NCBI RefSeq assembly: GCF_943912825.1
Contig: NZ_CALTUX010000004.1
Location: 2,476 to 66,475, forward strand
Source: an uncultured Anaerococcus sp.
GTDB lineage: Bacteria > Bacillota > Clostridia > Tissierellales > Peptoniphilaceae
DNA: 64,000 nt
Reading direction: 5' to 3'
Shown here: one piece after another, positions 1,644 to 60,142 of the stretch
How the letters are laid out: each line of letters begins with the position of its first letter
How positions within the stretch are numbered: the first letter of the stretch is position 1
Notes under the pieces: generated by a model
The model's input: the letters and a program-made list of their open reading frames with translations, nothing else
What the model was told of the DNA's origin: nothing
Database searches by the model: none
Program-made: the position numbers and the translations under genes

Positions 1644-3017
1644 TTAAAAACCCTTATCTTCGCTTAGTTTCTTAAACCAGGCTCCAGATTTTTTGATAAT
1701 CCTCTTACCTGTATCAAGCTGGTATTCTACAAGGCCGTACCTATTTTTGTAGGAATTTAGCCAGGACCAGCAATCAATAAAGGTCCAAAGCTGGTAGCCC
1801 TTGCAATTTGCCCCCTCATCCATGGCTTTTTTGAGGTAGGTGAGGTGTTCTTTGATAAAGTCAATCCTATAATCATCCTCTATCCTGCCATCTTTTCTGA
1901 ACCTTTCCTCATCTTCGACTCCCATGCCATTTTCAGAAATGAACCAATCGATATTTTTGTAATTGTCCCTGATATTGATAGCAATATCATAAATGGCCTG
2001 AGGATAGATTTCCCAACCCCTGTAAGGATTCATGCGCTTGCCTGGCATGTCGTATGGCAGATAGTACTTAGTAGGCATAAAAATGGCATCATCCTTGTAG
2101 GTGTAAGGATTTTCCATAACTCTAAGGGGTTGGTAATAATTAACTCCTAAGAGGTCTACGGTGTTAGCTTTAATTATTTCAAGCTCTTCTGCTGTGAAAT
2201 CTGGCATGAGGCCTTCTTTTTTGATTATATCGATCAAGTCTTTTGGGTAAGTCCCGAGAACTGATGGGTCTAGGAAGGACTTTTGGGCAAAAAGATCTGC
2301 AATCCTTGCAGCTTCCAGGTCATTTTTGTTCTGGCTTCTCGGATAGGCTGGAGTTAGGTTTAGGATTATGCCGATTTTCTTATTTGGGTCAATCTCTCTT
2401 AGGGCCCTTATGGCCTTGGCTGATGCCAGCTGGGTGTTGTAGGCAACTTGGACTGCCTTTTTGGGATCTACCTCGCATGGGTAATGATATTGATAAAGGT
2501 AGCCACACTCTACATGGACGATTGGCTCGTTGAAGGTAAAAAAGCAATCCACATATTCTCCAAAAAGCTTAAAACAAGTTCTTGCATAATCTAGGTATTT
2601 TTCTACGACCTCTTTATTGGCCCAACCACCAATTTCCTGAAGGTACATTGGCATATCAAAGTGGAAAAGATTTATGAAAAGCTTGATCTTTTTATCCTTG
2701 ATGGCCTTAAAATATGACTTGTAAAAGTCGACTGCTTTTGGATTGACCTTGCCATCCATGGCTGGAATTAGCCTTGACCAAGAGATGGATGTCCTAAAGG
2801 AATTGTGACCAGTTTTAGCCAAAAGCTCGATATTTTCCTTATAATCATAGTAGAAATTGGAGGTCTTTTCTGGTCCTATCAAGTCGTGGAACTTGTAAGG
2901 GTCTTCTTTGTACCAATAATCCCAGATATTATCGGTCTTGCCATCGGTATTTCCCCCTTCTGTTTGGGTGGCTGAGGTTGCAGATCCGAATAGAAAGTCT
3001 TCAGGAAATTTTATCAT
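1644..3017 (-). CDS. glycoside hydrolase family 1 (beta-glycosidase / 6-phospho-beta-glycosidase)
   Basis: FPEDFLFGSATSATQTEGG N-terminus, TFNEP acid/base motif and ISENG nucleophile motif. 457 aa. Confidence 0.85.
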   Translation of the reverse strand: MIKFPEDFLFGSATSATQTEGGNTDGKTDNIWDYWYKEDPYKFHDLIGPEKTSNFYYDYKENIELLAKTGHNSFRTSISWSRLIPAMDGKVNPKAVDFYKSYFKAIKDKKIKLFINLFHFDMPMYLQEIGGWANKEVVEKYLDYARTCFKLFGEYVDCFFTFNEPIVHVECGYLYQYHYPCEVDPKKAVQVAYNTQLASAKAIRALREIDPNKKIGIILNLTPAYPRSQNKNDLEAARIADLFAQKSFLDPSVLGTYPKDLIDIIKKEGLMPDFTAEELEIIKANTVDLLGVNYYQPLRVMENPYTYKDDAIFMPTKYYLPYDMPGKRMNPYRGWEIYPQAIYDIAINIRDNYKNIDWFISENGMGVEDEERFRKDGRIEDDYRIDFIKEHLTYLKKAMDEGANCKGYQLWTFIDCWSWLNSYKNRYGLVEYQLDTGKRIIKKSGAWFKKLSEDKGF

Positions 3018-3883
3018 ATCTTCTCCCTTTCTTCTCTTAATTTGATGTTGGCATAGGCCCCGTAGAGGTTGTTGTCATTAAAAAATGACACCGGCCTTAT
3101 ATTTAGGCTTACTCCAGCAAATATCTCATCTTTTAGCTTTTCTTTTAGGGCCTTCATAAAGTTTTCATCTTCAGAAATCGCTCCGCCTATATAGATGATT
3201 TCTGGATTTATGGAGTAGGCGATATTGTATAGGCCCATGGCAAGATAGGTGAACATCTTGTCAACCTCGCTATAGCAAGGCTCTTGTTTTTTGAGGTAGT
3301 TTTCAAAAATCGTGTAGGTATCAAGGTCAAGCTCATATTTTTCCTTGATGGCTCTTGCCACATTTGGCAGAGTCCCTAGGGTGGAGAGGTTTTTGATCTT
3401 GCCATAATCGTTAAAGAGCATATAACCAAATTCTCCACTTTCTAGGCTAAGGCCCCTTAGGATTTCCTTATCTTTCACCACAGCCCCACCTATGCCAGAA
3501 CCTATAATAACAAAGCAAACCAGGCTTTCTTCAATCTCTTTATAATAAATTTCCCCAAGAGCTGCGCAGTTGGCATCATTTTCTATGGCTACTGGAATTT
3601 TAAATCTCTCTTCTATATGTCTTGCAAAATTTCTCTCACCCAAGTATCCTAAGGCTGTAAGGCCAGCTACCTGAAAGCTTTCGCTATCAACTGTCCCTGG
3701 AGATGAAAAGCCAATTGCCTCTATGTCATATTCTGCCACAAAGCTTTGGACTGTATCTTCAAGAAATTTGATAAATTCATCCATGGTCGGAAGGCTTTTG
3801 GCAGACGCTTTTTTTATTATTTTTTCATTTTCAATTAGTGCATACTTGGTGGATGACCCACCTATATCAAATACTAAATACAT
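3014..3883 (-). CDS. ROK/BadF-type sugar kinase (no Cys zinc motif; possibly an N-acetylglucosamine or hexose kinase)
   Basis: N-terminal FDIGGSSTKYAL actin-fold ATPase motif. 4-bp ATGA overlap with the upstream GH1 gene. Confidence 0.65.
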   Translation of the reverse strand: MYLVFDIGGSSTKYALIENEKIIKKASAKSLPTMDEFIKFLEDTVQSFVAEYDIEAIGFSSPGTVDSESFQVAGLTALGYLGERNFARHIEERFKIPVAIENDANCAALGEIYYKEIEESLVCFVIIGSGIGGAVVKDKEILRGLSLESGEFGYMLFNDYGKIKNLSTLGTLPNVARAIKEKYELDLDTYTIFENYLKKQEPCYSEVDKMFTYLAMGLYNIAYSINPEIIYIGGAISEDENFMKALKEKLKDEIFAGVSLNIRPVSFFNDNNLYGAYANIKLREEREKI

Positions 3884-3923
3884 AATTCCCTTCTTATGTT
3901 ATAATTATCTTAGGAGTGATTAG

Positions 3924-4655
3924 ATGACAAATACTACTTATAATTTCATTATGGATATCATAAGCTCAAAATCTATCAAACTTTCTAAGTCTGAGAGGAT
4001 AATTGTCGAGAAAATCAAGGATATGGACCTTGACCTAAATAAGCTTCATATAAATGAATTTGCAAAGCTTTTAGACCTTTCAAACTCAACCATAACCCGC
4101 TTTGCCCAAAAGCTGGGCTTTGATGGATATTCTGAGCTTAAATTTAATATTTCTCAAAAACCGACTAGGTCCAAGTCCCTAAGCCAGGAAATCTACAAAA
4201 ATTTTATAGATTCCTGCAAGGCCTTTGATGATAAAACTATTGATTTTATCAAAAACCTTGCAAACTTTGGCAAGATTGCCGTAATTGGAATCGGTTCTTC
4301 TGGTCTTTGCGCCAATGAATTTGTCTACAAATTTGGCGAAATAGGCCTTGATAATACCGACTATGCCAAGGAGCCATATTCTATAAATCTCCTTAGCAAG
4401 GGGCTTTCGGCATCTGACCTTTTGATTGCAATTTCCCTTTCTGGAGAAAACCACAACCTCCTTGAAGGAGTGGACAATGCAAAGACTAATAAGGCCAAGA
4501 TCCTTGCCATCACAGGAGATGGGGAGTCAACCCTTGCCAAAGAAGCTTCCCTTGCTATCATCCTTCCACCCTATCCGAAATATTCCTACAAGATTTCAAA
4601 AATATTTCCTGTAACCTTTATGCTGGATATGATTTGTGAGGCCTATCTTAGCTAG
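3924..4655 (+). CDS. MurR/RpiR-family transcriptional regulator (HTH plus SIS sugar-phosphate-binding domain)
   Basis: HTH_6 segment FAKLLDLSNSTITRFAQKLGFDGYSELKF followed by a SIS domain (IAVIGIGSSG...). Divergent from the ROK gene. Confidence 0.85.
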   Translation: MTNTTYNFIMDIISSKSIKLSKSERIIVEKIKDMDLDLNKLHINEFAKLLDLSNSTITRFAQKLGFDGYSELKFNISQKPTRSKSLSQEIYKNFIDSCKAFDDKTIDFIKNLANFGKIAVIGIGSSGLCANEFVYKFGEIGLDNTDYAKEPYSINLLSKGLSASDLLIAISLSGENHNLLEGVDNAKTNKAKILAITGDGESTLAKEASLAIILPPYPKYSYKISKIFPVTFMLDMICEAYLS

Positions 4656-5931
4656 CCTTTATCATTTCTATGCCTAAGTAGCTTAGGACAGCCTCTACAA
4701 AAATCGAATTAGACCAGGAAAACCAATCTCTGGTATATTTTTCTGGATTATCCTTATCAAAACCCTCGTGACACAAATAGGTGCCTGCGTGGGTTTTTTC
4801 AAAATATCCAAGAATTTCCTCCTGCTCTTTTTTATCAGTAGCCGTCATAAGCTGCATGGAAAGAGCCAAGTGCCAGATATAATTTTCTGGAGTATGGTTT
4901 GAGCCAATCCCCTTGGCAGCCTTTCCTTTATAGTAATTTTCATTTTTTTCTGAAAGGATAAAGGCCCTAGTAGCTTGATAAATTGGGTCATCTTTTTCAA
5001 CATAACCCAGGTAAGGAAGGGATAAAAGGCTTGGGATATTGGCATCATCCATGAGATTATATGAACCCAGCCCGTCTGTCTCGTAGGCATAAATCTTTCC
5101 AAAATCATCATCCTCTACTATGCCATATTTTTTTATCCCGCAATCAATCTCATCTGCTAATTTTTTCATCTTTGCTGATAAATCATTTGCCAAATCCTCC
5201 TGATCTAAGCAAGCCGCTAGCCTTCTTAGGGCTACCAGGCAAAAGGCATTGGCTGGAATTAAATATTGGTAGATGCAGGAATCATCGCTTGGCCTAAAGC
5301 CTGTCCAGGACATACCGGTATATCCAACATCTCCTCCCCTAGGCCCTCCCCTTAGCGAATCGCTAGGGGCCCATGGGTCTGGCCTTTCGAAGATGTAGGG
5401 AGAATTTTCGTGCTTTTGCTCTAATTTTATAAGGTCTACCATATCATTCAAAACTCTTAAAAAGTCTTCGTCAAAAATAGTCCCGTCCTTGGTCTTTTCA
5501 TAATAAAGATAGGCTAGTTCCATCACATAGCAAAGGGAGTCTAGCTCGTATTTTCTCTCCCAAACCCAAGGTGATTCAAAATCTGTGATATCCTTATCAG
5601 TCCAACACCTGCCATTAGCCTCAATATTAAAGGCATTAGCATAAAGATCCTTATCTAGAGAAAATATCTGTCTGGCTAGGACTTTTTTTATAAGATCGTT
5701 GGCTTCATCACTATCTATATAAAAAAGCGGTCTAATCTGTCCAGATGAGTCCCTAAGCCACATGGCCTCTATATCCCCAGTGATTACAAAGGCATCGCCC
5801 CTATCAGTTTCTTTTATGGTGGTGGTGAAGGTGTTGTTAATGGCTTTTTTAAAAATCTTTTTAATGTCATCGCTTATTTGGTCAGATTTTTCAACTCTTT
5901 CCACCAAGTCTCTTACAATTTCTTTCATCAA
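4648..5931 (-). CDS. glycoside hydrolase family 125 (exo-alpha-1,6-mannosidase-like, DUF1237)
   Basis: 427 aa cytoplasmic protein with a WLRDSSGQ motif. Translationally coupled downstream of the GH38 gene, as in streptococcal N-glycan loci. Confidence 0.7.
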   Translation of the reverse strand: MMKEIVRDLVERVEKSDQISDDIKKIFKKAINNTFTTTIKETDRGDAFVITGDIEAMWLRDSSGQIRPLFYIDSDEANDLIKKVLARQIFSLDKDLYANAFNIEANGRCWTDKDITDFESPWVWERKYELDSLCYVMELAYLYYEKTKDGTIFDEDFLRVLNDMVDLIKLEQKHENSPYIFERPDPWAPSDSLRGGPRGGDVGYTGMSWTGFRPSDDSCIYQYLIPANAFCLVALRRLAACLDQEDLANDLSAKMKKLADEIDCGIKKYGIVEDDDFGKIYAYETDGLGSYNLMDDANIPSLLSLPYLGYVEKDDPIYQATRAFILSEKNENYYKGKAAKGIGSNHTPENYIWHLALSMQLMTATDKKEQEEILGYFEKTHAGTYLCHEGFDKDNPEKYTRDWFSWSNSIFVEAVLSYLGIEMIKAS

Positions 5932-8549
5932 AGCTCCAATCTATATGTTTTAATCTCAAAGCCTGGCAAGTTTTTATCAATTTCATCCTTTATTTTTCTC
6001 TCACCTAAGATATCATATTCAACTGCCTTAAGATCAATCTTTTTGGCTGATTTTCCTGGATTATAGACTCTTAGGATTGGTTCGTTTTTGTCATTCCTAA
6101 AAAGAGTTGAAAAAATATTGTCACCCAGGTCGATTTTAGGAAGATTTAAATCTTTCTCTTCGATATCATTTTTATCTAGGCCAAGAGATATAAAATCTAC
6201 TCTGGCTTGTAAGATATCTTGCCTATTTTTATCAAAATCATTTGCAAAGCTTGCAAAATAAAATTCAAAGGTCATTTCAGATAAGTCATCTTTTATAAGC
6301 TGGGCATCAGGTGTTGGGAAATATCCCCAATCTCCAAGCTCGCCCACTGACCTAAAGAGGGTCATATAAAGGCCCTCGCCTTTTATCATCTCATATTCGG
6401 CAGGACCGATGGCAGATACTCCAAAGCCCTTTTTATCATTATCCATAACCTGGACATAGCGGTTGAAATTTTGGGAAAAGTCTGGGTTTTTCCATGTTTG
6501 TGGAGGATAGGCATCTCTTTCTACACATTCAAAAATGGATTCTGCATAGACCTTGTCTGTTTCAAGATTATGACCAAAGAGGAGGCGCATCCTGTGGTCT
6601 TTGGCCAAGTTTTTAAGGCTGATTTTTATCTTAAGAGGGATATTTTTATCATATAGGATGATTTCCTTATCGATGGCCATCTCTATTAAGTCACTTGACC
6701 TATTAGCCCTTCTCTGGGTGATATCGTTAAGTCTTATCTGCTCAGCTAATAGCTTATCTTCTGCTGATTTTGGAAGCTTAAAGCTTTCCCTTATCCTAAT
6801 TATGGTCTTGTCATTTTCCCTTATGATTTTTTGACCTATTAGTTTGCCGCCAAGAATCCTTGTCCCATCTGTCGATTGTCTGTAGATATATTCATTGCCA
6901 ATATCGCCTGTATCTTCGATTGCTAGGACGTTTTTAAAGCTAAGTACAGAGTTTTTATCAAATATATCAAGGCTGGCATTATCATTTATACTTAGCTTGT
7001 AAAAGTCATTTTCGATTTGTTTTTCATTTATTTCACAAGATGCAAAGGAAGATTGACCTGTAACTAGACTTAAGATTTTTTTCTCAAAGGCTCCCAATTC
7101 TAAGGAAAATCTAACCCTGACCTTATTTGCAAAATATGGCTTTCTAAACTTATCATCTGGCAAAATATAGGCAAAACCTGTGCCTAAGTAGGTGATTTCT
7201 GCTGGGATTTCTTTCCCCTCCTCATCTACTAATTTCAAAGCTGGGGCGGATTTCCCCGCAAGTTCATCATAAACATCCGGATAATCTATACCGAAAAATT
7301 TCCTGTCTATTTCAATCTCTGTCACCACTTCCTTAATCCTCCTATAAGGGAGGGTATTTATGATGCAGATAGCATAATCATTGACATTGGCAGTGCTTTC
7401 TCTAATCTTTTTCTTGGCGAAATCTTCTAGGTAATCTAGACCTTCATCCACATTCTTAAAGCGTCTTAGATTGCCATCGTGGACAGAATCTACAGAGCAG
7501 CCGCAAATGCTGTCGTGGGGGTGGTTTTTGATTAATTCTTGGTAGAAATAATCTAGCTTTTGGTGAGGATAGGCATCCCTGTCCACAAAAAGAGTGAATA
7601 GGGGTTGGATAACTTCTTCAAAACGCATCTCCAGGCTCTTGTTGTATTTTTTAAGATAATACCTAGATGATGATGTGGAGTTTAGAGTCCACCAGCCATC
7701 AGTCGCCTGACTTCTAAGCTCTCCTTTGATTGTATCAATCTCTCCCACCTCATTTTCAAGGGCCTTAAAATATAGGTCTAAATTTGAATGAACAAAGTCA
7801 TAATCCTCATAAAGAGCATTGGCCTTTTTTAAGATTTGTCCGATATTTTTCTGGACTGGCGAATGGTCGCAACCGTTCATTAAAAGAAGCTGGTTTGTAG
7901 ATGCGTATTTTTCCATATCGGCTATGCGTTTATCCATGTAGGCCTTAAGGTCTTCCTCATCTTCTGGTATATCTAGGCCATTGGCATACCAATTTGCAAA
8001 AAGCACGCTTAGGGTCTTATCCCCATTTGGGCTCTGCCAATAAATTTCAGAATTTTTTGATGTGAAATCTTCTATAACTACATTGTCAAAGCCAGTCGCC
8101 TTAACTCCCCTGCCAAAATATGCCACGTCTATCCCTGCTTTTTTAAGAATTTGGCTGGCCTGGCCAATATTGCCAAAGGTATCTGGAAAATAGCCAATCA
8201 TTGAAGGAGATCCCCACTTTTTTATATTTTTTATGCCAAGGCTTAGATTTTTAAGGTTAGACTCGCCACTTGTAAGGAAGGCATCTTGGAGGATATACCA
8301 AGGTCCTAGCTTAAGCTTTCCAGCTTCTATCAGATTTTTAATTTTTTCCTTGTTTTGAGGGCGAACCTCAAGATAATCTCCTATAGGAAGATAATGGCCA
8401 TCTAGCCAATAGTATTTAAAATCCGGGTCTTCAAAGGCCTCAAGGACTCCATCCATCAGGTCAATTAGGCGCATATGGTGGTTTTCATAAGGCAGGTACC
8501 ACTCCCTATCCCAATGAGTGTGGCTTACCACGTGGACGGTCTTTTTCAT
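5928..8549 (-). CDS. glycoside hydrolase family 38 alpha-mannosidase
   Basis: N-terminus VHVVSHTHWDREWY (GH38 metal-binding signature). 873 aa. 4-bp overlaps with both neighbours. Confidence 0.85.
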   Translation of the reverse strand: MKKTVHVVSHTHWDREWYLPYENHHMRLIDLMDGVLEAFEDPDFKYYWLDGHYLPIGDYLEVRPQNKEKIKNLIEAGKLKLGPWYILQDAFLTSGESNLKNLSLGIKNIKKWGSPSMIGYFPDTFGNIGQASQILKKAGIDVAYFGRGVKATGFDNVVIEDFTSKNSEIYWQSPNGDKTLSVLFANWYANGLDIPEDEEDLKAYMDKRIADMEKYASTNQLLLMNGCDHSPVQKNIGQILKKANALYEDYDFVHSNLDLYFKALENEVGEIDTIKGELRSQATDGWWTLNSTSSSRYYLKKYNKSLEMRFEEVIQPLFTLFVDRDAYPHQKLDYFYQELIKNHPHDSICGCSVDSVHDGNLRRFKNVDEGLDYLEDFAKKKIRESTANVNDYAICIINTLPYRRIKEVVTEIEIDRKFFGIDYPDVYDELAGKSAPALKLVDEEGKEIPAEITYLGTGFAYILPDDKFRKPYFANKVRVRFSLELGAFEKKILSLVTGQSSFASCEINEKQIENDFYKLSINDNASLDIFDKNSVLSFKNVLAIEDTGDIGNEYIYRQSTDGTRILGGKLIGQKIIRENDKTIIRIRESFKLPKSAEDKLLAEQIRLNDITQRRANRSSDLIEMAIDKEIILYDKNIPLKIKISLKNLAKDHRMRLLFGHNLETDKVYAESIFECVERDAYPPQTWKNPDFSQNFNRYVQVMDNDKKGFGVSAIGPAEYEMIKGEGLYMTLFRSVGELGDWGYFPTPDAQLIKDDLSEMTFEFYFASFANDFDKNRQDILQARVDFISLGLDKNDIEEKDLNLPKIDLGDNIFSTLFRNDKNEPILRVYNPGKSAKKIDLKAVEYDILGERKIKDEIDKNLPGFEIKTYRLEL

Positions 8550-50279: not shown

Positions 50280-53036
50280 CTACAGATAATTCTTATAGTT
50301 TCTAATTATAAAATGATCATCTGATTCTGCTTTAGATTTTATAAATTCATACGCTTCAACATCTATTGATTTGATGCTTTCTAAATTTTTTAATATCAAA
50401 AACTTTATGTGTGCGCTATCAAAATTCATCATTTTATTAATCCTACTGATTATAGATTTTTTATTATATACTCTCAACATATATAACATAGCTTCTACAG
50501 AACGGTATCTTACACTAAGATTACTGTCATACGATTTTTGTAAAACAAATTGCAAAATTGCCGCTTTTATATCATCTTTAGCATTAGATATATAACCATA
50601 TTTACAGATATTAAAAATTGTACGAAGTGATTCAATCTTGTCAAAATCATCTACATCTGTGTATGTAGCTAATAATAGAATTAAATCATCAATCTCAAGT
50701 TTATCTAAAACTAATTTTAAAATAGAAAATTTAAAATTTAAAGTAAATTGTGATTGCATTCCTATGAAGTTAGAATCTCTTACATTTAGTATAGTCTCTT
50801 CATTTTCTAACATATACTTAATATTTTTATTTTCCTTATATTCTTCACTATTATTTAAAATCGAAATAATCAAATCAAGCGCTCCGCATTTTTCATAAAT
50901 CAGCTGATTTTCAGCTAACAAAGTCTCTACGCATGCATCTATAATTTCATATTTTATATCATTTTCAATCTCAATTTTTTTAACATCTATTATATTTCTT
51001 ATATTTGTATATGGGTCATATCCTGACATAGAATATTTTCCATCAACACCCTGACTCTTATTTCTTTCATGAATAATTTGTATATTTTTATTTATAAATT
51101 CTAAAATCACATCTTGATTATTAGTTTCTAACACTTTATATATCATCTTTGTAATTTCAGGAAAATATTCGTTTACTATTAAATCTACTTTTGTATTAAT
51201 TTTAATGTTGTCAGAAAAGCATTTATTAATATTAGAAAATAACTCAGCTAAATTATCATAATTGATGGATATCCCATCTAAGTTTATAATTTTAATAATT
51301 TTATCGAGTAATTTCACTATAGTTTTGATATTAATGCTTTGTATATCTACATCCCCTAATAAAGATACTATATTGCGATAGAATCGCGATAAGTCATTAT
51401 CAATGAATAAAATTATTATATTTACAATTTCTTCACCGCATATTCTTTTAATATTGTATTCTATAGCATCAAAAAAATAATATCCTAAATTTATAACTCT
51501 ATTTTTATCAGATATCCATGTCAGAATATAAGCGTGTAATTCTTCCCAAACCTCAGTAAAAAAATCATCATTAAAGTAACAACCTAAATATTGAAAGCAT
51601 AAAAATTTTCTAATATTTCTCCTATGAACAATAGGATAATTCTCAATGCTTTTATATATTTCTCTCGCAGTTGTACTATCCATTTTTCCATAGATATCAT
51701 TAAATAAATTGTAGACTTTTTTTATTTCTTTAGGTCTTTCTGAAATAAGTGTTGTCTTTATTAGAAATTTTCTAAAATTCCAATCATCATACTCATCACA
51801 CAGTTGATAAACCATTAACTTCATCATATCAATAATTGAAATTAAATGAGATAAAGATCCGTAATAAATAGCTGTAATATAATAATTTGATATATACATT
51901 ATATATTTAGAAATATTATTCCCATACCTTACAGTACTTGGACTCTTTGATGCCTCATTTATTGTTTCTTTAATTATTTCTTTATATAAATTTTTTTCAT
52001 TTCTATCATTTAATGGATAATATAATGGCTTCTTATTCGATAATATCTTTTTCTGTTCTTCATTGGATATAACAATCTTATTATTTATTTCATTATCAAA
52101 ATTCCTGAGATTTCTTAAATCTATCGTAATATCTTGTAAATACCAGTTAGGAAGCTTGTTATTTTTTGCTATATCATATGCTTTATTCATATCAATAATA
52201 GCTTTGTCTATGTCGCCCTTAAAATAATTTACTATGGCATTCCACCTAGATTCAGTAACTTCAGAATATTTTTCACTTTGATTTTTGCCAATCTCGAAAA
52301 GTAAATGTGGTTTATCAAATCTATATATTGAATCATTATAAAATAACACATCTAAAAACTGACTAGATAGAATATCAAATTTATTAGTGCGATCTTCAGG
52401 AATATCTGATTCTAATCCTATTAACTCACATAGCTTATTTTTAGTTACATTAATACTAGAATACAAGCTTTTATCTATTTCATCGGCTGATTCAAAGTCA
52501 TTATCATTAAAGTTATCTATTCCATTATTATTAATATCATAAAAATTTGTAGAGACTAAGTGCCCCCTACAATAATTAGCATATATCTCAATAATTTCAA
52601 TAATTAGACTTTCATAAACTGTCTCTTTTAACTTATCAAATTCATTAATAGTTTTATATTTGGGACCATTATTATCACGAATTTCTTGCTGCAGCCGTGT
52701 TATTTTTTTGTTATCGTCATTACAAAATATAAATATCGATTTCTTAGATAATATTAAGGAACGTCTATACTCTGTTACAACCCCTTCTGGAACATCTTCT
52801 TCATTAGATATTAAAAATAAACAAACATCTGAATCATTGAGTTTATTTAAATAAGAATCTCTTGCAGTCATTGAACTAGCCATGGTACCTTCAAAAACAT
52901 ACGCGCTAATAAAGCCTGTTTCTTCTAAAAGTAATTTTAATTCATTTCTAATAGTATCATATTTTTCATCACCGCACTTAGAACTTATAAAAACCTTAAT
53001 CTTGTCTTCAAATTTAATATTATAATTCAATAGCAT
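50280..53036 (-). CDS. 918-aa hypothetical protein with N-terminal DUF4062-like domain and long alpha-helical repeat region (candidate defence protein); very AT-rich gene
   Basis: N-terminus KVFISSKCGDEKYDTIRNELKLLLEETGF...DVCLFLISNEEDVPEGVVTEYRRSL matches the DUF4062 pattern (FISS...acidic...hydrophobic core). The remainder is Leu/Ile/Asn-rich helical repeats. GC is visibly far below that of the flanking genes. Confidence 0.5.
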   Translation of the reverse strand: MLLNYNIKFEDKIKVFISSKCGDEKYDTIRNELKLLLEETGFISAYVFEGTMASSMTARDSYLNKLNDSDVCLFLISNEEDVPEGVVTEYRRSLILSKKSIFIFCNDDNKKITRLQQEIRDNNGPKYKTINEFDKLKETVYESLIIEIIEIYANYCRGHLVSTNFYDINNNGIDNFNDNDFESADEIDKSLYSSINVTKNKLCELIGLESDIPEDRTNKFDILSSQFLDVLFYNDSIYRFDKPHLLFEIGKNQSEKYSEVTESRWNAIVNYFKGDIDKAIIDMNKAYDIAKNNKLPNWYLQDITIDLRNLRNFDNEINNKIVISNEEQKKILSNKKPLYYPLNDRNEKNLYKEIIKETINEASKSPSTVRYGNNISKYIMYISNYYITAIYYGSLSHLISIIDMMKLMVYQLCDEYDDWNFRKFLIKTTLISERPKEIKKVYNLFNDIYGKMDSTTAREIYKSIENYPIVHRRNIRKFLCFQYLGCYFNDDFFTEVWEELHAYILTWISDKNRVINLGYYFFDAIEYNIKRICGEEIVNIIILFIDNDLSRFYRNIVSLLGDVDIQSINIKTIVKLLDKIIKIINLDGISINYDNLAELFSNINKCFSDNIKINTKVDLIVNEYFPEITKMIYKVLETNNQDVILEFINKNIQIIHERNKSQGVDGKYSMSGYDPYTNIRNIIDVKKIEIENDIKYEIIDACVETLLAENQLIYEKCGALDLIISILNNSEEYKENKNIKYMLENEETILNVRDSNFIGMQSQFTLNFKFSILKLVLDKLEIDDLILLLATYTDVDDFDKIESLRTIFNICKYGYISNAKDDIKAAILQFVLQKSYDSNLSVRYRSVEAMLYMLRVYNKKSIISRINKMMNFDSAHIKFLILKNLESIKSIDVEAYEFIKSKAESDDHFIIRNYKNYL

Positions 53037-53203: not shown

Positions 53204-54157
53204 GTGAATAGATTTGAGGTTATTATGAAACAACCGTTGATTGATTTTTCTTCTTATCCTGTTAGGCTTACGCTAAAGCGTTTGCTTAAGGATAAGTCTA
53301 CTAAAAAAAATATAATATGGGCCACTAATAACTATGAAGACTTTGGTCAGGCTTTTAATGATAGGGCTGAAATTACTGAAGCTGTTTTTGATCATGGATT
53401 TATCCTTGAGCCTAGGACTAGCAAGTCGGCTGAGACTCAGCTGGAACGTACTAGGAAGAAGGCTGAAGTCTATACCCCTACTTGGGTGGTTAATTTTATG
53501 AATAATTATTGCGATGAGGTCTATTTTGGTAGGAAGGATGTCTTTAATATTCCAAAGGATAAGACATGGGTCCCTCTTAGGGAGAAAATTTCTTTTCCTG
53601 AAGGGAAATCCTGGCAAGACTATGTTGATTCTCCTAGGCTTGAAATAACTTGTGGAGAGGGCCCTTATCTTGTATCTAGATATGATGTGGCGACTAGTCA
53701 CTTAATTAGACATACCATAGACAGGATTGGCTTTCTGGATAGGAAGCTTAGGATAGTTAATGAAAATACTGACTCTAAGGAAGACTGGACACATTGGGCT
53801 ATAAGAGCTGTTCAGGCCTCTTATGGCTATGAATACCAGGGTGACAGCTTGTTACTAGCTAGGATAAATGTCCTACTTACCTTTGTAGAATATTATGAAC
53901 AAAGATGGGATGAGGATGTGGCTAAAGATATCCTAAATAAGCTTGCCAATATCATCAGCTGGAATATCTGGCAAATGGATGGACTTACTGACACAGTACC
54001 CTTTGGAGCGCCAGTGCCTAATAATGAACAAATGAGTATATTTGATTTATTTGAAGATAAGAAAGATGAAGAAGAAAGTAAACTCATAGCCTGTAGGATA
54101 TTTGATTGGAAAGCCAACAAGTCCCAGACTTTCGCATCACTTAAGGAGCATATATGA
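53204..54157 (+). CDS. N-terminal half of a split gamma-class N6-adenine DNA methyltransferase (motifs X, I and II/III; no NPPY)
   Basis: AEVYTPTWVVNFM (motif X; compare TaqI GRVETPPEVVDFM), LEITCGEGPYL (motif I) and YGYEYQGDSLLLARINVLL (GxExD...A..N region). Its stop overlaps the next ATG (ATGA). Confidence 0.6.
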   Translation: MNRFEVIMKQPLIDFSSYPVRLTLKRLLKDKSTKKNIIWATNNYEDFGQAFNDRAEITEAVFDHGFILEPRTSKSAETQLERTRKKAEVYTPTWVVNFMNNYCDEVYFGRKDVFNIPKDKTWVPLREKISFPEGKSWQDYVDSPRLEITCGEGPYLVSRYDVATSHLIRHTIDRIGFLDRKLRIVNENTDSKEDWTHWAIRAVQASYGYEYQGDSLLLARINVLLTFVEYYEQRWDEDVAKDILNKLANIISWNIWQMDGLTDTVPFGAPVPNNEQMSIFDLFEDKKDEEESKLIACRIFDWKANKSQTFASLKEHI

Positions 54158-55179
54158 AAAAATTTGATTTTGTAATTGGGAACCCACCTTATAATGAAAC
54201 AGTAGAAGGCAGAAGTGAAGATCCACCAATTTATCATTTCTTTTACGATGCATCAATTGATATTGCTGACAGTATAACATTCATAACTCCTTCACGATTT
54301 TTATTTGATACAGGAAAAACACCTTCTAAATGGAATAAAAAAATGTTAAATAGTTCTCACTTTAAAATATTAAGGTATGAACCAAATGGAGCTAAAGTTT
54401 TTCCAACAACCGATATAAAGGGTGGTGTTGCCATAACCTCGTGGAATAATAACAAAATTCATGAACCTATTGGAACCTTTTATCCTAATCCAGAAATCAA
54501 AGAAATCATTAAAAAAGTAAAAAATATAAATAGTAATTTTTTTGATAGTATTATATTTTCTAATACAAGTTATAAATATACCGAATTGTTTTACGATGAA
54601 AATCCCGAATTTAAAGATAGAGTATCAGGTGGTTCAAGAAGATATTTATCGTCTACCTGCTTTGAAAAATTCCCAGAATCTTTTTTAGATAAAAAATCAA
54701 ATAAAGATGATGTCACAATAATTGGAAGACAAGACTATAAAAGAAAAACAAAATATTTCAATATTAACTATTTAAATCCACCAGAAAATTTTAATAGTTA
54801 TAAATTGGTACTACCTAGCTCTAATGGTAGTGGAAAATTTGGCGAAACATTAAGTGACCCATTTGTAGGAAACCCATGTGAAGGATATACAGAAACTTTT
54901 GTAACATTTGGTAATTTTGAAAAATATGAAGAAGCAAATAATAGTCTAACTTATATTAAAACTAAATTTGCAAGAGCTATGCTAAATTCAAAAAAAATCA
55001 CTCAAGGAAACAAAAATTCAAAAGTTTGGGAAAATGTACCACTCCAAGATTTCACAGAAAACTCTGACATTGATTGGAGCAAGTCCATTGCTGAGATTGA
55101 CCAACAATTGTACAAGAAGTATTGCCTATCTCCTGAAGAGATTGACTTTATTGAGGAAAAAGTACAGGAGATGAAGTGA
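54154..55179 (+). CDS. C-terminal (catalytic plus putative target-recognition) half of a split gamma-class N6-adenine DNA methyltransferase
   Basis: Begins FDFVIGNPPY (motif IV) followed by PIYHFFY...ITFITPSRFLF (compare TaqI YPIHVFK...LVFVVPATWL). Own RBS AAGGAG 7 nt upstream, and a stop 4 codons upstream in-frame. Confidence 0.7.
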   Translation: MKKFDFVIGNPPYNETVEGRSEDPPIYHFFYDASIDIADSITFITPSRFLFDTGKTPSKWNKKMLNSSHFKILRYEPNGAKVFPTTDIKGGVAITSWNNNKIHEPIGTFYPNPEIKEIIKKVKNINSNFFDSIIFSNTSYKYTELFYDENPEFKDRVSGGSRRYLSSTCFEKFPESFLDKKSNKDDVTIIGRQDYKRKTKYFNINYLNPPENFNSYKLVLPSSNGSGKFGETLSDPFVGNPCEGYTETFVTFGNFEKYEEANNSLTYIKTKFARAMLNSKKITQGNKNSKVWENVPLQDFTENSDIDWSKSIAEIDQQLYKKYCLSPEEIDFIEEKVQEMK

Positions 55180-58100
55180 TGAATAGACCTAATATTAATA
55201 CTAGCAAGGAAGTTATACCTGTCTGCTATGCCTACACCACACCTGGTGTGACCTATCATGAGGGATGGACCAAGATTGGTTTTACTGAAAGAGATGTAGA
55301 AACTAGGGTCAGAGAACAAGTCGGCACTGCTGGCATAAGGTATAAGATTGAGTGGGAAAAAAACGCCGTCTATGAAGGCTCAAACCAAACCTTTAGGGAT
55401 TCTGATTTTCATAAATACCTTGAAAATAATAATATCGAGAGGGAACCAGGACTTGAGTGGTTTAAAATTGATCCCTTACTTGCCAAACATAAATTTGATG
55501 AATTTAAGGAAAATAGAGGTCTTATAGAGACAAACCTTAAGCCGGCTCCTTATAAACTTAGAAACGAACAAGATGAGGCTGTCGCTAAGACTATGGCTTA
55601 TTTTACTTCTCATTATGAGGGCGAATTTCTTTGGAATGCCAAGCCTCGTTTTGGCAAGACCCTTGCTTCTTATGACCTTTGCATGAGGATGGGTTTTGAA
55701 AATGTCCTAATTGTCACAAATAGGCCTGCTATTGCTGATTCTTGGTATGGAGACTATGTCAAATTTGTAGGACCGGCATCTGGCTATATTTTTGTAAGCC
55801 ATGTCGATACTATTAAGAATGAAAAATACGTCTATAGTAGAAAAGAATTTGTCGATATCTTGCCTTCTGTTGAAAATTATAAGGGCTGTATAGAATTTGT
55901 AAGCCTTCAAGACCTCAAGGGTTCGATTCATTTTGGCGGTAGCCATGACAAGCTAGATGAAATTAAGGATACTAATTGGGATATATTAATTATCGACGAA
56001 GCCCACGAGGGTGTTGATACCTACAAGACCGATGTGGCCTTTAATCAAATCAAGAGGAAAAACACCCTTCACTTGTCAGGTACACCTTTTAAGGCCCTTG
56101 CCAATGACAAGTTTCCAGATGATGCCATCTACAATTGGACCTATGCAGATGAGCAAAGGGCTAAGAGGGACTTTTCAAGCTCTGATTTAGAGGAAAATCC
56201 TTATGCGACTCTGCCAAGACTAAATCTTTTTACCTACCAAATGTCAGATATTATCAGAGATAAAATCGAAGATGGGATTGAACTTGATGGGGAAAATGTT
56301 GAATATGCCTTTGACCTCAATGAGTTTTTCTCAACTGACGAGAGAGGAGCCTTTGTCTACAAGAATGATGTAGATAAGTTTTTAGATGCCTTAACCCAAA
56401 ATGAGAAATTTCCTTTTTCTACACCTGAACTAAGGGATGAAATCAAGCACTCTTTTTGGATTTTGAACAGGGTTGATTCAGCCAAGGCCCTTAAGAAAAA
56501 ACTTGAAGTCAATCCTATTTTTAGGGACTATGAGATTGTCCTAGCTGCTGGTGATGGCAAGACTGATGATGAGATTATTAATGAGGATTCCCTTAATCGT
56601 GTTAAGGATGCTATCAAAAAATACGATAAGACCATTACCCTTTCTGTAGGCCAGCTTACAACAGGTGTGACCATTCCAGAATGGACAGCTGTCCTTATGC
56701 TTGCCAATATGAAATCCCCTGCCCTCTACATGCAGGCTGCCTTTAGGGCACAAAACCCTTGCCTATTTTCTAATAATGGCAAACATTTTAGGAAGGAAAA
56801 CGCCTATGTTTTTGACTTTGACCCAGCAAGGACCCTAGATATTTTCGAAAAATTTGCAAATGATCTTTCCCCTACTACATCAGCCGGTGGTGGAGATTTA
56901 GGAACTAGAAAGAAGCATATCAGAGATCTGTTAAACTTCTTCCCTGTCTATGGTGAGGATGAAGATGGTCAGATGGTGCTTTTGGATGCTGAAAAAGTCC
57001 TAACTATACCTAGAAAAATTAAGTCAGTAGAGGTTGTGAACCGTGGCTTTATGTCCAATTTCCTTTTTAAGAATATTGCTAATATTTTTAGGGCTCCTAG
57101 TCAAGTTAGGCAAATTTTAGAAAAACTTAATCCGACCAAAGAAGGAAAACCAATTAAGATTGATGATGATACAGCCGATGAACTAGATATAAATGATGAT
57201 GGCGATGTAGATATTGAGCAAACAAAAATAATAGGCAAGGCCCAAGATGTATTTGGTCCAAAAATTTATGATGATATCAAAGAAGATTTGTTAATATTCG
57301 AAAAAGATCTGGTAACCGATCGTAAAAAATCTGGTCTTGATGATATAGTTGAAAAAATTACCGAACCAATAATTGCTCCTATTATAGACAGAAGCAAAGA
57401 AGTCTATGGTAATAAATTGAGAAGGACAGTCGAGAAAAATATCGAAAGAGACATCAAGGATAAGGCAAGTGCAATCATTAAAAAAGGCTATATCGAATTT
57501 GAGATTGAAAATAATAAGCTTGAAGCACAAAAGGAAAAAGACCTTAATAACTCAAAGTCTTCAACAGAATCTAGTCAGATAGAAAGTAAGTATGATGATA
57601 TTTTCAAGGCAAAAAGGGAAGAATTGGCCAAGAAAATAAACGAAGACTTGGAAAATTATAACATAATTGAAGATTCTATTATGACAGCCACTGAGAAAAT
57701 CGAAACAGATGTGAAGGAAAAAGAAAAACGTACTATTGAAGATGATGTTAGAGATAGGCTCAGAGGATTTTCTAGGACTATTCCATCTTTTCTTATGGCC
57801 TATGGGACTTTTGATACAAAATTATCTAATTTCGATAAAATAATCCCAAATGATGTCTTCTTAGAAGTCACTTCTATTAGCATAGAGGAATTTAAAGACT
57901 TACGTGATGGCTTTGACTATACCGATCCAGAAAGCGGAGACCTTATGCACTATGAAGGTGGACTCTTTGATGAATTAGTATTTAACGATTCTGTGGCAGA
58001 GTTTTTGAATAAGAAAATAGACTTAGCCAATTATTTTGACCCTGCAATCAAGAGGGATATTTTTGATTACATTCCTCCACAAAAAACTAACCAAATATTT

Positions 58101-58490
58101 ACACCAAAGAAAGTTGTAAAGGAAATGGTGGATTTGTTAGAAAAGGAAAATCCTGGATGCTTTGATAATCCAAACTTCACCTTTATTGATCCTTATATGA
58201 AGTCAGGTTTATATGTAGCAGAAATCGTAAAAAGATTATACAGGAGCGAAAAAATTAAAGAATTCTATCCTAACGATAAAGAAAGGCTAAACCATATTTT
58301 CGCTAAACAAGTCTATGGCCTTGCCCCAACAGAAATAATTTACAAAATTGCAAAAAACTTCGTCCTAGGTTTTAGCGATGAAATAGAGATTGAAAAACAT
58401 AAGCTAAGGCTTTTAGATTCTCTAGCAAGTATCCAAGAGGATAGGTTTGAAGAGGATTTGGTAAAATTATATCCAGAACTTAAGGATTGA
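55176..58490 (+). CDS. 1104-aa multidomain protein: T5orf172/GIY-YIG-like N-terminal domain, SF2 DEAH helicase core, and a C-terminal second copy of the methyltransferase N-half (motifs X, I and II/III) ending just before where NPPY would lie
   Basis: T5orf172-like CYAYTTPGVTYHEGWTKIGFTERDVETRVREQ. Walker A AKPRFGKT, DEAH IIDEAHEG, motif VI QAAFRAQNP. C-terminus QIFTPKKVVKEMVDLL (X), FIDPYMKSGLYV (I), QVYGLAPTEIIYKIAKNFVLG (compare ORF 53204-54157). Confidence 0.65.
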   Translation: MMNRPNINTSKEVIPVCYAYTTPGVTYHEGWTKIGFTERDVETRVREQVGTAGIRYKIEWEKNAVYEGSNQTFRDSDFHKYLENNNIEREPGLEWFKIDPLLAKHKFDEFKENRGLIETNLKPAPYKLRNEQDEAVAKTMAYFTSHYEGEFLWNAKPRFGKTLASYDLCMRMGFENVLIVTNRPAIADSWYGDYVKFVGPASGYIFVSHVDTIKNEKYVYSRKEFVDILPSVENYKGCIEFVSLQDLKGSIHFGGSHDKLDEIKDTNWDILIIDEAHEGVDTYKTDVAFNQIKRKNTLHLSGTPFKALANDKFPDDAIYNWTYADEQRAKRDFSSSDLEENPYATLPRLNLFTYQMSDIIRDKIEDGIELDGENVEYAFDLNEFFSTDERGAFVYKNDVDKFLDALTQNEKFPFSTPELRDEIKHSFWILNRVDSAKALKKKLEVNPIFRDYEIVLAAGDGKTDDEIINEDSLNRVKDAIKKYDKTITLSVGQLTTGVTIPEWTAVLMLANMKSPALYMQAAFRAQNPCLFSNNGKHFRKENAYVFDFDPARTLDIFEKFANDLSPTTSAGGGDLGTRKKHIRDLLNFFPVYGEDEDGQMVLLDAEKVLTIPRKIKSVEVVNRGFMSNFLFKNIANIFRAPSQVRQILEKLNPTKEGKPIKIDDDTADELDINDDGDVDIEQTKIIGKAQDVFGPKIYDDIKEDLLIFEKDLVTDRKKSGLDDIVEKITEPIIAPIIDRSKEVYGNKLRRTVEKNIERDIKDKASAIIKKGYIEFEIENNKLEAQKEKDLNNSKSSTESSQIESKYDDIFKAKREELAKKINEDLENYNIIEDSIMTATEKIETDVKEKEKRTIEDDVRDRLRGFSRTIPSFLMAYGTFDTKLSNFDKIIPNDVFLEVTSISIEEFKDLRDGFDYTDPESGDLMHYEGGLFDELVFNDSVAEFLNKKIDLANYFDPAIKRDIFDYIPPQKTNQIFTPKKVVKEMVDLLEKENPGCFDNPNFTFIDPYMKSGLYVAEIVKRLYRSEKIKEFYPNDKERLNHIFAKQVYGLAPTEIIYKIAKNFVLGFSDEIEIEKHKLRLLDSLASIQEDRFEEDLVKLYPELKD

Positions 58491-58604: not shown

Positions 58605-58637
58605 AAAGAGCAGGCTCAAATAGTCTGCTCTTTTTAT
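58605..58637 (+). terminator. rho-independent terminator
   Basis: agagcag-gctcaaatagt-ctgctct followed by TTTTT. Confidence 0.75.
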
Positions 58638-58732: not shown

Positions 58733-60142
58733 ATGAGTAAAGGGAGTATTATGATAATTAATTTTAAGAAAACTCTAGCGACTTTTATGGCTTTTGGGCT
58801 CTTTGTAGGACTTTGTGGCCAATCTTTTGCTAGTGATGAAAATATAGAAAACAAACAAACAAGTAGCTTATTCGAGATCCTTGCCGGCGATGTGGTTGCT
58901 GATAAGGCGACTTCTGAGATTAAGGTGGATTATGCGGATGATCCTGCCTTTAAGGAGGAATTTGATGCTAGATTTGCCCTTCTTTCTAGGATTGAAGAGG
59001 CTAGAAATATCGAAGGTCTTGATTTGACTGAATTTATCAAGCTTTTAAATACCAAGGCTGCTGATAAGGATAAGCTAAACACAGGTCTTGATTCTTTGAA
59101 TAAGCTTATCGAGGAAAGTGGCCAGAAGGTCGCTGTGGACCTTGATATTGCACCTATCAAAGCTAAGGTCAATGATTATATCCTAAAGGGTATGCTTTTC
59201 TATGCTGATAAGCTTGATAAGACTGATGTGACCACCCTTCATGCCTATTATGAGGCAGTTGTTGGTTCGCTTTATTACAAAAATGCTAATGAAGAGGGCA
59301 GGAAGTCTTATGATGAGACCCTTAAGGGAATTTATGAGACCTTGACTAAGGCTAATGAAAAAATCGAAGTCGGTGAGGAATTCACTGATGAAGAAAAGGC
59401 TAATTTTAAAGATTCTTTTGATAAGCTTGACCAAATGGTTAAGGAAAAGACTTCTAAGCCTCTTAAAAATGAGACCACATCTCTTAGAAATGGAATCTAT
59501 TTAGCTAGCGCCAACGAGATGAGTGTGAGCGAGAATAAAGATGGCGAAAATAAAGACGATGAGAATAAAATCAATGAAAATTCTGCCTTCTACAAGTCAG
59601 CAAAGACTGGAATTAAGGAAGCTTACGAGAAGTTATCAGCTGATCAAAGGAAAAAACTTGACCAGATGAATACCAATAACGATGACCTATTATCAGATGA
59701 CGAGCTAAAGGCAGACGGTGAATTCACCCTACCTTTATCTGATGACCACTACTTTAAGCCATTTACAGCCAATGTAAGCGGCTCATCAAGCTCTACTGAC
59801 ACAAGCTCAAGCCAGTCAACTACTAGCGGGTCAAGCACAAGCCAGTCAAGCACTAGCCAAACTACCACACCTAGCACAACAACATCCACTAGTAGCCAAA
59901 CACCTACAACTACCGCCCAAAGTCCAATTGGCGGCACACCAGAGACTGTCACCATCGGTGGAGCAGAAAATAAATCAGCTGACCAAACAAAAAAAGAAGA
60001 CGACAAGAAAGACGCCCCAACCAATACCACATCTACATCCTATGTAAAAACAGGTATAAAGGGAATCGCCTACGTGGGAATAATCCTACTAGTAGCAATC
60101 GGCGCCTACACTCTTCTTAACAAAAACAAAGACAAGAAATAA
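58733..60142 (+). CDS. surface protein with signal peptide, Ser/Thr-rich linker and C-terminal sorting-signal-like anchor
   Basis: Signal peptide ...GLCGQSFA|SDE. A Ser/Thr tract of about 70 aa. C-terminus YVKTG followed by a hydrophobic segment and the NKNKDKK tail (an LPXTG-type architecture with a non-canonical motif). Confidence 0.6.
   Translation: MSKGSIMIINFKKTLATFMAFGLFVGLCGQSFASDENIENKQTSSLFEILAGDVVADKATSEIKVDYADDPAFKEEFDARFALLSRIEEARNIEGLDLTEFIKLLNTKAADKDKLNTGLDSLNKLIEESGQKVAVDLDIAPIKAKVNDYILKGMLFYADKLDKTDVTTLHAYYEAVVGSLYYKNANEEGRKSYDETLKGIYETLTKANEKIEVGEEFTDEEKANFKDSFDKLDQMVKEKTSKPLKNETTSLRNGIYLASANEMSVSENKDGENKDDENKINENSAFYKSAKTGIKEAYEKLSADQRKKLDQMNTNNDDLLSDDELKADGEFTLPLSDDHYFKPFTANVSGSSSSTDTSSSQSTTSGSSTSQSSTSQTTTPSTTTSTSSQTPTTTAQSPIGGTPETVTIGGAENKSADQTKKEDDKKDAPTNTTSTSYVKTGIKGIAYVGIILLVAIGAYTLLNKNKDKK

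Follow-up and report, generated by a model that had tools for sequence, protein, structure and literature searches.

The window analysed here, a 64,000-nucleotide stretch of DNA from an uncultured Anaerococcus sp. (contig NZ_CALTUX010000004.1, positions 2,476 to 66,475), holds three adjacent genes over which a methyltransferase fold is divided and which also encode a putative nuclease and a helicase-like motor. By their motifs, the first open reading frame (ORF1; module A) is the N-half of a methyltransferase, the second (ORF2; module C) the catalytic half with a target-recognition domain (TRD), and the third (ORF3; R-B) a nuclease–helicase that ends in a second, divergent N-half, module B. 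The three pieces make up a real, conserved and widespread cassette, whose sequences mark it as one for DNA restriction and modification (R-M). We lean, with limited confidence, towards reading it as a modular system resembling Type ISP, in which C would complete A for methylation and complete B to target the helicase–nuclease.

Division of the methyltransferase fold

ORF1 carries motifs X (EVYTPTWVV), I (LEITCGEGPYLV), II (YGYEYQGD) and III (NIWQMDGL), which identify it as a stand-alone, S-adenosylmethionine (SAM)-binding N-half of a gamma-class N6-adenine methyltransferase; it covers the whole of PADLOC profile MTase_II PDLC03390 (1.2e-97), and its family members are mostly 306-330 aa long. 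ORF2 begins at strand β4 (MKKFDFVIGNPPY; FDFVIGNPPY) and continues through a variable TRD into a conserved tail, DIDWSKSIAEIDQQLYKKYCLSPEEIDFIEEKV; with matches to Pfam Eco57I (PF07669; 2.6e-16, profile positions 73-171) and PADLOC PDLC03375 (1.2e-29), it reads as the catalytic C-half of the fold plus its TRD. Taken together, the two genes give the motif order X, I, II, III, then IV (NPPY) and a C-terminal TRD, a feature of the Eco57I family of gamma-class N6-adenine enzymes, and they are colinear with a fused 657-aa Eco57I-family methylase of Peptoniphilus senegalensis, to whose N- and C-halves they are 62% and 49% identical, respectively. A search of NCBIfam gave no useful match.

The preliminary description of this DNA had assigned ORF3 a T5orf172-type N-domain, a complete SF2 DEAH ATPase and a C-terminal methyltransferase N-half, a paralogue of ORF1 that stops where the NPPY strand should follow; all of this stood up except the closeness of the paralogy. 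The N-domain matches PF10544 in sequence and has a ββαβα core with conserved Tyr, Arg and Glu, placing it in the T5orf172/GIY-YIG superfamily (AlphaFold predictions were run on this domain and on B). The motor matches Pfam ResIII (4.9e-12, residues 126-305) and the PHROG 16 DNA helicase (1.8e-24), and its Walker A (NAKPRFGKT), DEAHEG, SGTP and motif VI (QAAFRAQN) segments are invariant across the R-B family alignment. The linker that follows, residues 641-850, had no match in family searches of Pfam, PADLOC and NCBIfam. PDB sequences, queried by phmmer and by profile with ORF3, the B profile, a profile of the whole family and the fused methylase, yielded neither a methyltransferase nor a Type ISP match, just weak matches to UvrB/XPD helicases.

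In module B, the peptides QIFTPKKVVKEMVDLL, FIDPYMKSGLYV and QVYGLAPTEIIYKIAKNFVLG that had been quoted as methyltransferase motifs are in place, the chain ending 38 aa past the last of them; motif X (QIFTPKKVV) is followed by motif I (FIDPYMKSGLYV), the β2 segment QVYGLAP and motif III (LLDSL). The predicted fold is that of a methyltransferase N-half, so that B is, as modelled, a half-fold of the N-half type. Its kinship with ORF1 is remote: BLASTP of ORF1 against ORF3 was not significant (E=3.6), but profile–profile comparison aligned motifs X, II and III of A and B in a colinear way, at only P=6e-4 (probability 29%), and compact A-type proteins bridge the two families, matching the B profile at up to 8e-8. 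On these comparisons A and B are distant homologues, not close paralogues.

Long-form relatives locate the split. Among 1004 homologues returned by an exhaustive search with B, those of full length fall into two classes, of ~1100-1150 aa (short forms; 1085-1150 aa) and ~1360-1530 aa (long forms). The B domains of the long forms, 44-56% identical to B of ORF3, run directly into MKF(D/T)xVIGNPPYQ (MKFDxxIGNPPY) and an ORF2-like half, 29-46% identical to ORF2 over its full length, which ends in the ORF2-type tail DIDWS...LYKKYGLS..EI.FIEEKV. The last 75 aa of ORF3 and the first 30 aa of ORF2 align without a gap to the continuous long forms, and D1104 of ORF3 is the residue immediately before the junction Met of R-B-C relatives. 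The Rossmann fold of the methyltransferase is divided between strands β3 and β4, with β4-β7, the NPPY catalytic loop and the TRD on ORF2. Residues T976-P977, D1005, Y1007, K1009-S1010-G1011, Q1045, G1048, A1050-P1051 and D1081 are conserved to the same degree in the short forms (164 distinct ones) as in the long (56); because its motif residues are conserved equally in both, B of the short forms does not look like a decaying remnant.

One R-B protein, P0250 (1381 aa), bears after B (residues ~1100-1381) an unrelated domain with GDGDFTTEDTVWDFKVSK and without an NPPY half; this domain may be a PD-(D/E)xK nuclease.

The three genes lie head to tail on one strand. As read from the sequence, the ORF1 stop and the ORF2 start form an ATGA overlap, with the Shine–Dalgarno (SD) site AAGGAG 5 nt 5' of the ORF2 ATG; with the TGATG overlap of ORF2 and ORF3 and its own SD site, this identifies the cassette as an operon with translational coupling.

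Arrangements of the modules and signals at their junctions

Among species-representative genomes, at least 527 candidate stretches code for a relative. Our census took in ~160 loci (80 from species-representative genomes and 80 from metagenomes), whose ORFs were sorted by profile as A, B, C, N-domain or helicase. The species-representative loci covered phyla including Bacillota, Actinomycetota, Bacteroidota, Spirochaetota, Pseudomonadota and Planctomycetota, and one of their contigs had been binned as a Methanocorpusculum metagenome-assembled genome. Three separate genes in the order of the window, A, C and R-B, were present in 45 loci; in 35, for example in P. senegalensis, A and C form a single methylase gene of 630-710 aa beside R-B. 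Conversely, C may be joined to B: the DNA in hand held 22 distinct junctions of this kind, and all 19 R-B-C loci with enough flank had an adjacent stand-alone A gene, coding for ~300 aa or a compact ~240 aa, upstream or downstream and often overlapping. Two loci have the order A, R-B, C as separate genes, one has R-B-A-C as a single chain with no separate A gene, and ~20 hold further, divergent systems of the type R-x-C plus A.

C is therefore found joined to A or to B, in both cases at one and the same place in the fold, or as a gene of its own. A, B and C are each present once per system, with spare C genes in a few loci; since A-C loci keep R-B and R-B-C loci keep A, each N-half is retained even where C is fused to the other. 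In the all-in-one R-B-A-C proteins, P0299 (locus L089, 4705-9183), P0357 and P0363, of 1470-1534 aa, a compact canonical N-half sits between B and the NPPY half; L089 has no separate A gene.

The family also occurs on plasmids of lactic acid bacteria, and many Enterococcus plasmids carry an 'N-6 DNA methylase' (a compact A) together with R-B-C. One of the 19 R-B-C loci (L171) is a complete plasmid, pRS5 of Pediococcus pentosaceus (NC_012031.1; 10,153 bp), which encodes A and R-B-C (2188-7364) and no other C, adjoined by a YafQ/PhD toxin–antitoxin pair; there A is annotated as a hypothetical protein and R-B-C only as an Eco57I methylase domain protein. pRS5 would make a handy minimal replicon for experiments. 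We rejected a phage origin for the family, as just five phage records matched, weakly or in part.

Fused genes keep a start codon where the separate genes would meet. In a first set of A-C fusions, all 28 had an in-frame start at the junction (27 ATG, 1 GTG), and a strict SD core lay 4-16 nt upstream in 22 of 27, compared with 8 among the 274 Met codons elsewhere inside the genes (Fisher 3e-22); the mean energy of the anti-SD duplex was -8.3 kcal/mol at the junction and -3.1 kcal/mol at the others (p=5e-15). A second set gave ATG in 18/18 A-C fusions, 14/18 with an SD, and a start-capable codon in 22/22 B-C fusions (18 ATG), 12/22 with an SD, against a control rate of 64/1220; junctions of this set that lack an SD have A-rich leaders. 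Non-ATG junction codons were TTG or GTG in 7/7 cases (Leu as TTG in 3/3, Val as GTG in 4/4), which the genes' own codon usage would yield by chance at ~1e-5.

The peptide encoded over the SD region of A-C fusions is highly variable while its purine-rich motif is retained, and the same SD and ATG as in the window persist inside fused A-C genes. The junction Met is absent from 3/3 all-in-one R-B-A-C proteins, with GTC at the site in L089, so it is not structurally required. Because a start-capable codon, usually with an SD, is kept at the junction, these patterns suggest that free C is made even from fused genes.

C also follows an evolutionary course of its own. Across 82 short-form loci, pairwise distances correlate at 0.50-0.74 among A, both parts of B and the helicase, and at 0.68 between the catalytic part of C and the TRD, but at only 0.00-0.27 between either part of C and A, B or the helicase. 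By this measure, the evolution of C is uncoupled from that of A, B and the helicase, in the manner of a swappable specificity cassette. In partial Mantel tests that controlled for A and the helicase, the Rossmann half of B and the catalytic part of C co-varied (r=0.20, p=0.0025); with B and the helicase controlled for, A and the catalytic part of C did not do so significantly (r=0.03). This co-variation of B and C is suggestive only. Extra C genes (L098, 10528-12837) and inverted ones (L114, 1203-3337; L123, 5998-7011; L145, 9031-14004), all adjoining a system, are reminiscent of the hsdS genes that Type I systems keep as spare or invertible cassettes.

Perfect pentanucleotide repeats occupy the A/C junction of two loci, directly 5' of KFYAVIGNPPY: (CAACG)x11 in L055 (1-55) and (ACAGC)n in L028 (~1-45), with the contigs breaking there. 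These tracts look like a phase-variable junction; in contrast, a tandem-repeat check of L022 found no repeat at its junction.

A proposed shared catalytic subunit and its alternatives

In the reading we lean towards, C would be a free catalytic/TRD subunit, exchanged between systems, for which A and B compete or which they share. A:C would act as the host-protecting modification methyltransferase and R-B:C as the restriction complex, in which C would read the site and its methylation state, the DEAH motor would translocate DNA at the expense of ATP and the T5orf172 domain would cut it; this presumes that B and C complement each other physically and that B binds SAM. Restriction and modification would always have the same specificity, since both share C, and replacement of C would retarget the two together. 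More tentatively, the roles could be set out in full: free C would alternately complete two SAM-binding half-domains, to modify with A and, with B, to form a reader, possibly incompetent for methylation, that arms the T5orf172 nuclease–helicase, with internal starts supplying the second copy of C. That one catalytic subunit can serve both N-halves had already been proposed in the preliminary description; the fusions of C to A and to B, the A gene beside every R-B-C with enough flank, the conserved junction starts and the cassette-like evolution of C all favour it, but the order R-B-A-C fits a single holoenzyme at least as well.

Several further observations weigh against a shared C. Motif I of B reads D-P-Y-M-K-S-G, with K in place of the first glycine, and β2 is followed by an invariant A-P and no acidic residue (D/E), so that SAM binding by B is uncertain. 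The fused or split state differs in 36% of R-B pairs at 80-90% identity and is random below 60% identity; because it flips so fast, the start and SD signal at the junctions could in part be a recent relic. The partial Mantel co-variation of B and C is weak and prone to phylogenetic artefacts, and in the raw data C correlates about as well with A (0.20) as with B (0.27). Finally, a distantly analogous cluster of Bacillus subtilis, DnmA-YeeB-YeeC, showed no restriction or anti-phage phenotype (PMC9973331).

The foremost alternative, which we consider unlikely though by no means negligible, is a single holoenzyme R-B:A:C of one, two or three polypeptides, a true analogue of Type ISP enzymes rather than two alternative complexes. 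In it, C would be completed by A in every case, and B, an N-half duplicated long ago, would have ceased to complement C and would dock or couple the nuclease–helicase to the A:C core. Every architecture indeed has exactly one R-B, one A and one C, and the all-in-one chains, of which that of L089 has no separate A gene beside it, place A contiguous to C with B upstream, just as a docking domain predicts. The SAM motifs of A are canonical, as opposed to those of B with its missing acidic residue, and, with the helicase controlled for, A and the Rossmann half of B still co-vary (partial Mantel r=0.42, p=0.0005), which could reflect direct A:B contact. A holoenzyme does not, however, predict the conserved starts and SD sites at the junctions, nor their loss only in the all-in-one fusions. 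To judge from the model of B, a half Rossmann fold of three strands with an exposed β1 edge would be unlikely to be stable without a β4 partner; the spacing at which B abuts β4 in R-B-C is canonical and the very one found between A and β4 in A-C, and invariant residues in the ligand loop of B would be unexpected in a mere docking module.

It is improbable that the cassette is a decayed relic, with ORF3 a truncated R-B-C that has lost its reader and ORF1 and ORF2 a split orphan methyltransferase serving epigenetic regulation, as proposed for DnmA-YeeB-YeeC. The lack of a phenotype in B. subtilis would fit, as would frameshifts elsewhere in C or R at some loci (for example L031, L040, L043, L062 and L137). 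Yet in most loci by a wide margin, and over a broad spread of phyla, the short R-B protein is intact, at 1085-1150 aa, among candidates as numerous as those counted above; their nuclease, ATPase and B motifs are invariant, with B no less conserved than in the long forms; the three genes are translationally coupled; and, like defence genes, the system is often met with on plasmids and in low-GC islands. An artefact, in which ORF1 and ORF2 would be one frameshifted methylase gene and the methyltransferase likeness of ORF3 a chance motif match, is scarcely credible and was rejected, for although A-C genes are fused in close relatives and BLASTP links ORF1 and ORF3 without significance, 45 loci show the split with its ATGA overlap and SD, several samples gave identical contigs that have it, and PADLOC holds distinct full-length profiles for the A half and the C half.

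Known systems and genomic context

The cassette shares with Type ISP enzymes its domain content: a gamma-class N6-adenine methyltransferase, a TRD, and an SF2 motor that follows a nuclease. The earlier label 'Type ISP-like' holds for this content, in pieces. Type ISP enzymes methylate one strand, translocate with ATP from an asymmetric site and cleave on head-on collision, behaviour that is no more than putative in the cassette. Where those enzymes have an Mrr-like PD-(D/E)xK nuclease at the N-terminus, the cassette has one of the T5orf172/GIY-YIG kind; in the window, the motor chain carries B only, methyltransferase and TRD being joined to the motor just in the R-B-C and R-B-A-C relatives; and three polypeptides provide two N-halves, A and B, for each catalytic/TRD half. 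B looks like the N-part of the methyltransferase of LlaBIII, a Type ISP enzyme. The cassette has no detectable sequence similarity to the LlaBIII chain.

With Eco57I and the Type IIG-IIL enzymes (Eco57I, MmeI, BpuSI) the common ground is Eco57I-family sequence and the motif order X-I-II-III-IV; unlike the cassette, a characterised Type IIG enzyme consists of one chain with a single N-half, works without an ATPase motor and cleaves at a fixed distance. The PADLOC profile REase_MTase_IIG PDLC03626 (1359 positions) is matched in its helicase part, 335-626, by ORF3 (6.2e-20) and in its C-terminal third, 1012-1359, by ORF2 (1.5e-18), with the nuclease and B parts unmatched. Because ORF3 and ORF2 match separate stretches of it, this profile looks like that of a fused relative, and the family is thus already present in databases as 'RM', caught by PADLOC profiles that derive from predicted Type II/IIG entries.

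In B. subtilis DnmA(YeeA)-YeeB-YeeC and its Vibrio homologues, an Eco57I/MmeI-like N6-adenine methyltransferase, an SF2 helicase and a T5orf172 protein are clustered (PMC9973331). These three functions resemble those of the cassette at the level of domain class; there each has a complete protein to itself, the methyltransferase is unsplit and a second N-half is lacking.

Folds rebuilt from two polypeptides are familiar from split methyltransferases. M.AquI and M.EcoHK31I are two-polypeptide C5 methyltransferases, and M.HhaI and M.SssI have been bisected; each has one N-part and one C-part, and none is known to have alternative N-halves or a helicase–nuclease fusion, unlike the cassette. In Type I systems, HsdS is common to the M2S methylase and the R2M2S endonuclease. 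The parallel would lie in one specificity subunit for modification and restriction assemblies, recombinationally mobile and sometimes provided with spare or inverted cassettes; the putative shared subunit of the cassette, however, also bears the NPPY catalytic half, its partners are half-domains instead of a whole HsdM, and there is no homology to HsdR or HsdS. A search of the literature, insofar as it is searchable, found no account of this architecture, of two N-halves per catalytic half or of internal initiation in these genes.

If C is indeed shared, the cassette would represent a new solution for locking restriction and modification to the same sequence while specificity changes fast, with the swap of one small gene retargeting both activities at once; the shared-HsdS principle of Type I systems would here be achieved by splitting the methyltransferase fold itself. 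It would also be a natural Rossmann fold built from interchangeable halves, a case of fold complementation with alternative partners, in which internal translation initiation is kept in fused genes to balance the supply of subunits. Current annotation scatters the family among 'helicase', 'subunit M', 'N-6 DNA methylase' and 'hypothetical protein'; recognising the unit would improve the annotation of defence systems and methylomes and help to predict transformation barriers in gut and food bacteria.

The features of the cassette in the window are collected in Table 1. The GTG starts given by the ORF finder for ORF3 (55176) and ORF1 (53204) are displaced by ATG 55179 and ATG 53225, which are the likely true starts and agree with database proteins of 1103 and 310 aa; identical proteins are recorded under 'uncultured Anaerococcus sp.'. 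The hairpin 3' of ORF3 probably marks the end of the three-gene operon; a promoter scan of the cassette scored no higher than expected from shuffled sequence.

Table 1 Features of the three-gene cassette, in window coordinates
Feature	Position	Strand	Remarks
ORF1 (module A)	53204-54157	+	317 aa as ORF; 310 aa (NCBI) from likely ATG 53225
ORF1/ORF2 junction	54143-54157	+	SD AAGGAG 54143-54148; ORF2 ATG 54154 overlaps ORF1 TGA 54155-54157 (sequence read)
ORF2 (module C)	54154-55179	+	341 aa
ORF2/ORF3 junction	55167-55181	+	GGAG 55167-55170; ORF2 TGA 55177-55179 overlaps ORF3 ATG 55179-55181 (TGATG; sequence read)
ORF3 (R-B)	55176-58490	+	1104 aa as ORF; 1103 aa from likelier ATG 55179
T5orf172/GIY-YIG-like putative nuclease domain	55176-55520	+	ORF3 residues 1-115
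SF2 DEAH helicase-like ATPase, putative translocase	55521-57095	+	ORF3 residues 116-640
Charged, variable, probably helical linker	57096-57725	+	ORF3 residues 641-850; poorly conserved in family alignment
Module B, helical subdomain and divergent methyltransferase N-half	57726-58490	+	ORF3 residues 851-1104
Terminator-like hairpin 3' of ORF3	58605-58633	+	12-bp stem, then T-run; consensus match only

A trough in guanine–cytosine (GC) content of 25-33%, between flanks of 38-41%, holds the cassette and a divergent neighbour, a 918-aa ORF (50280-53036, minus strand; ~25% GC) with a weak DUF4062/TIR-like N-terminus (4.3e-5) and otherwise no family match. We rejected this ORF as a component of the system, because only loci of this one Anaerococcus strain (L001-L003) pair it with the cassette, the ~160 related loci offering no further instance; it may be a separate gene of a defence island. 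On the other side of the cassette, a 469-aa ORF (58733-60142, plus strand) that bears no relation to it has an N-terminus like a signal peptide, a long tail of low complexity rich in Ser, Thr and Gln, and a hydrophobic anchor at its C-terminus, and probably encodes a surface protein.

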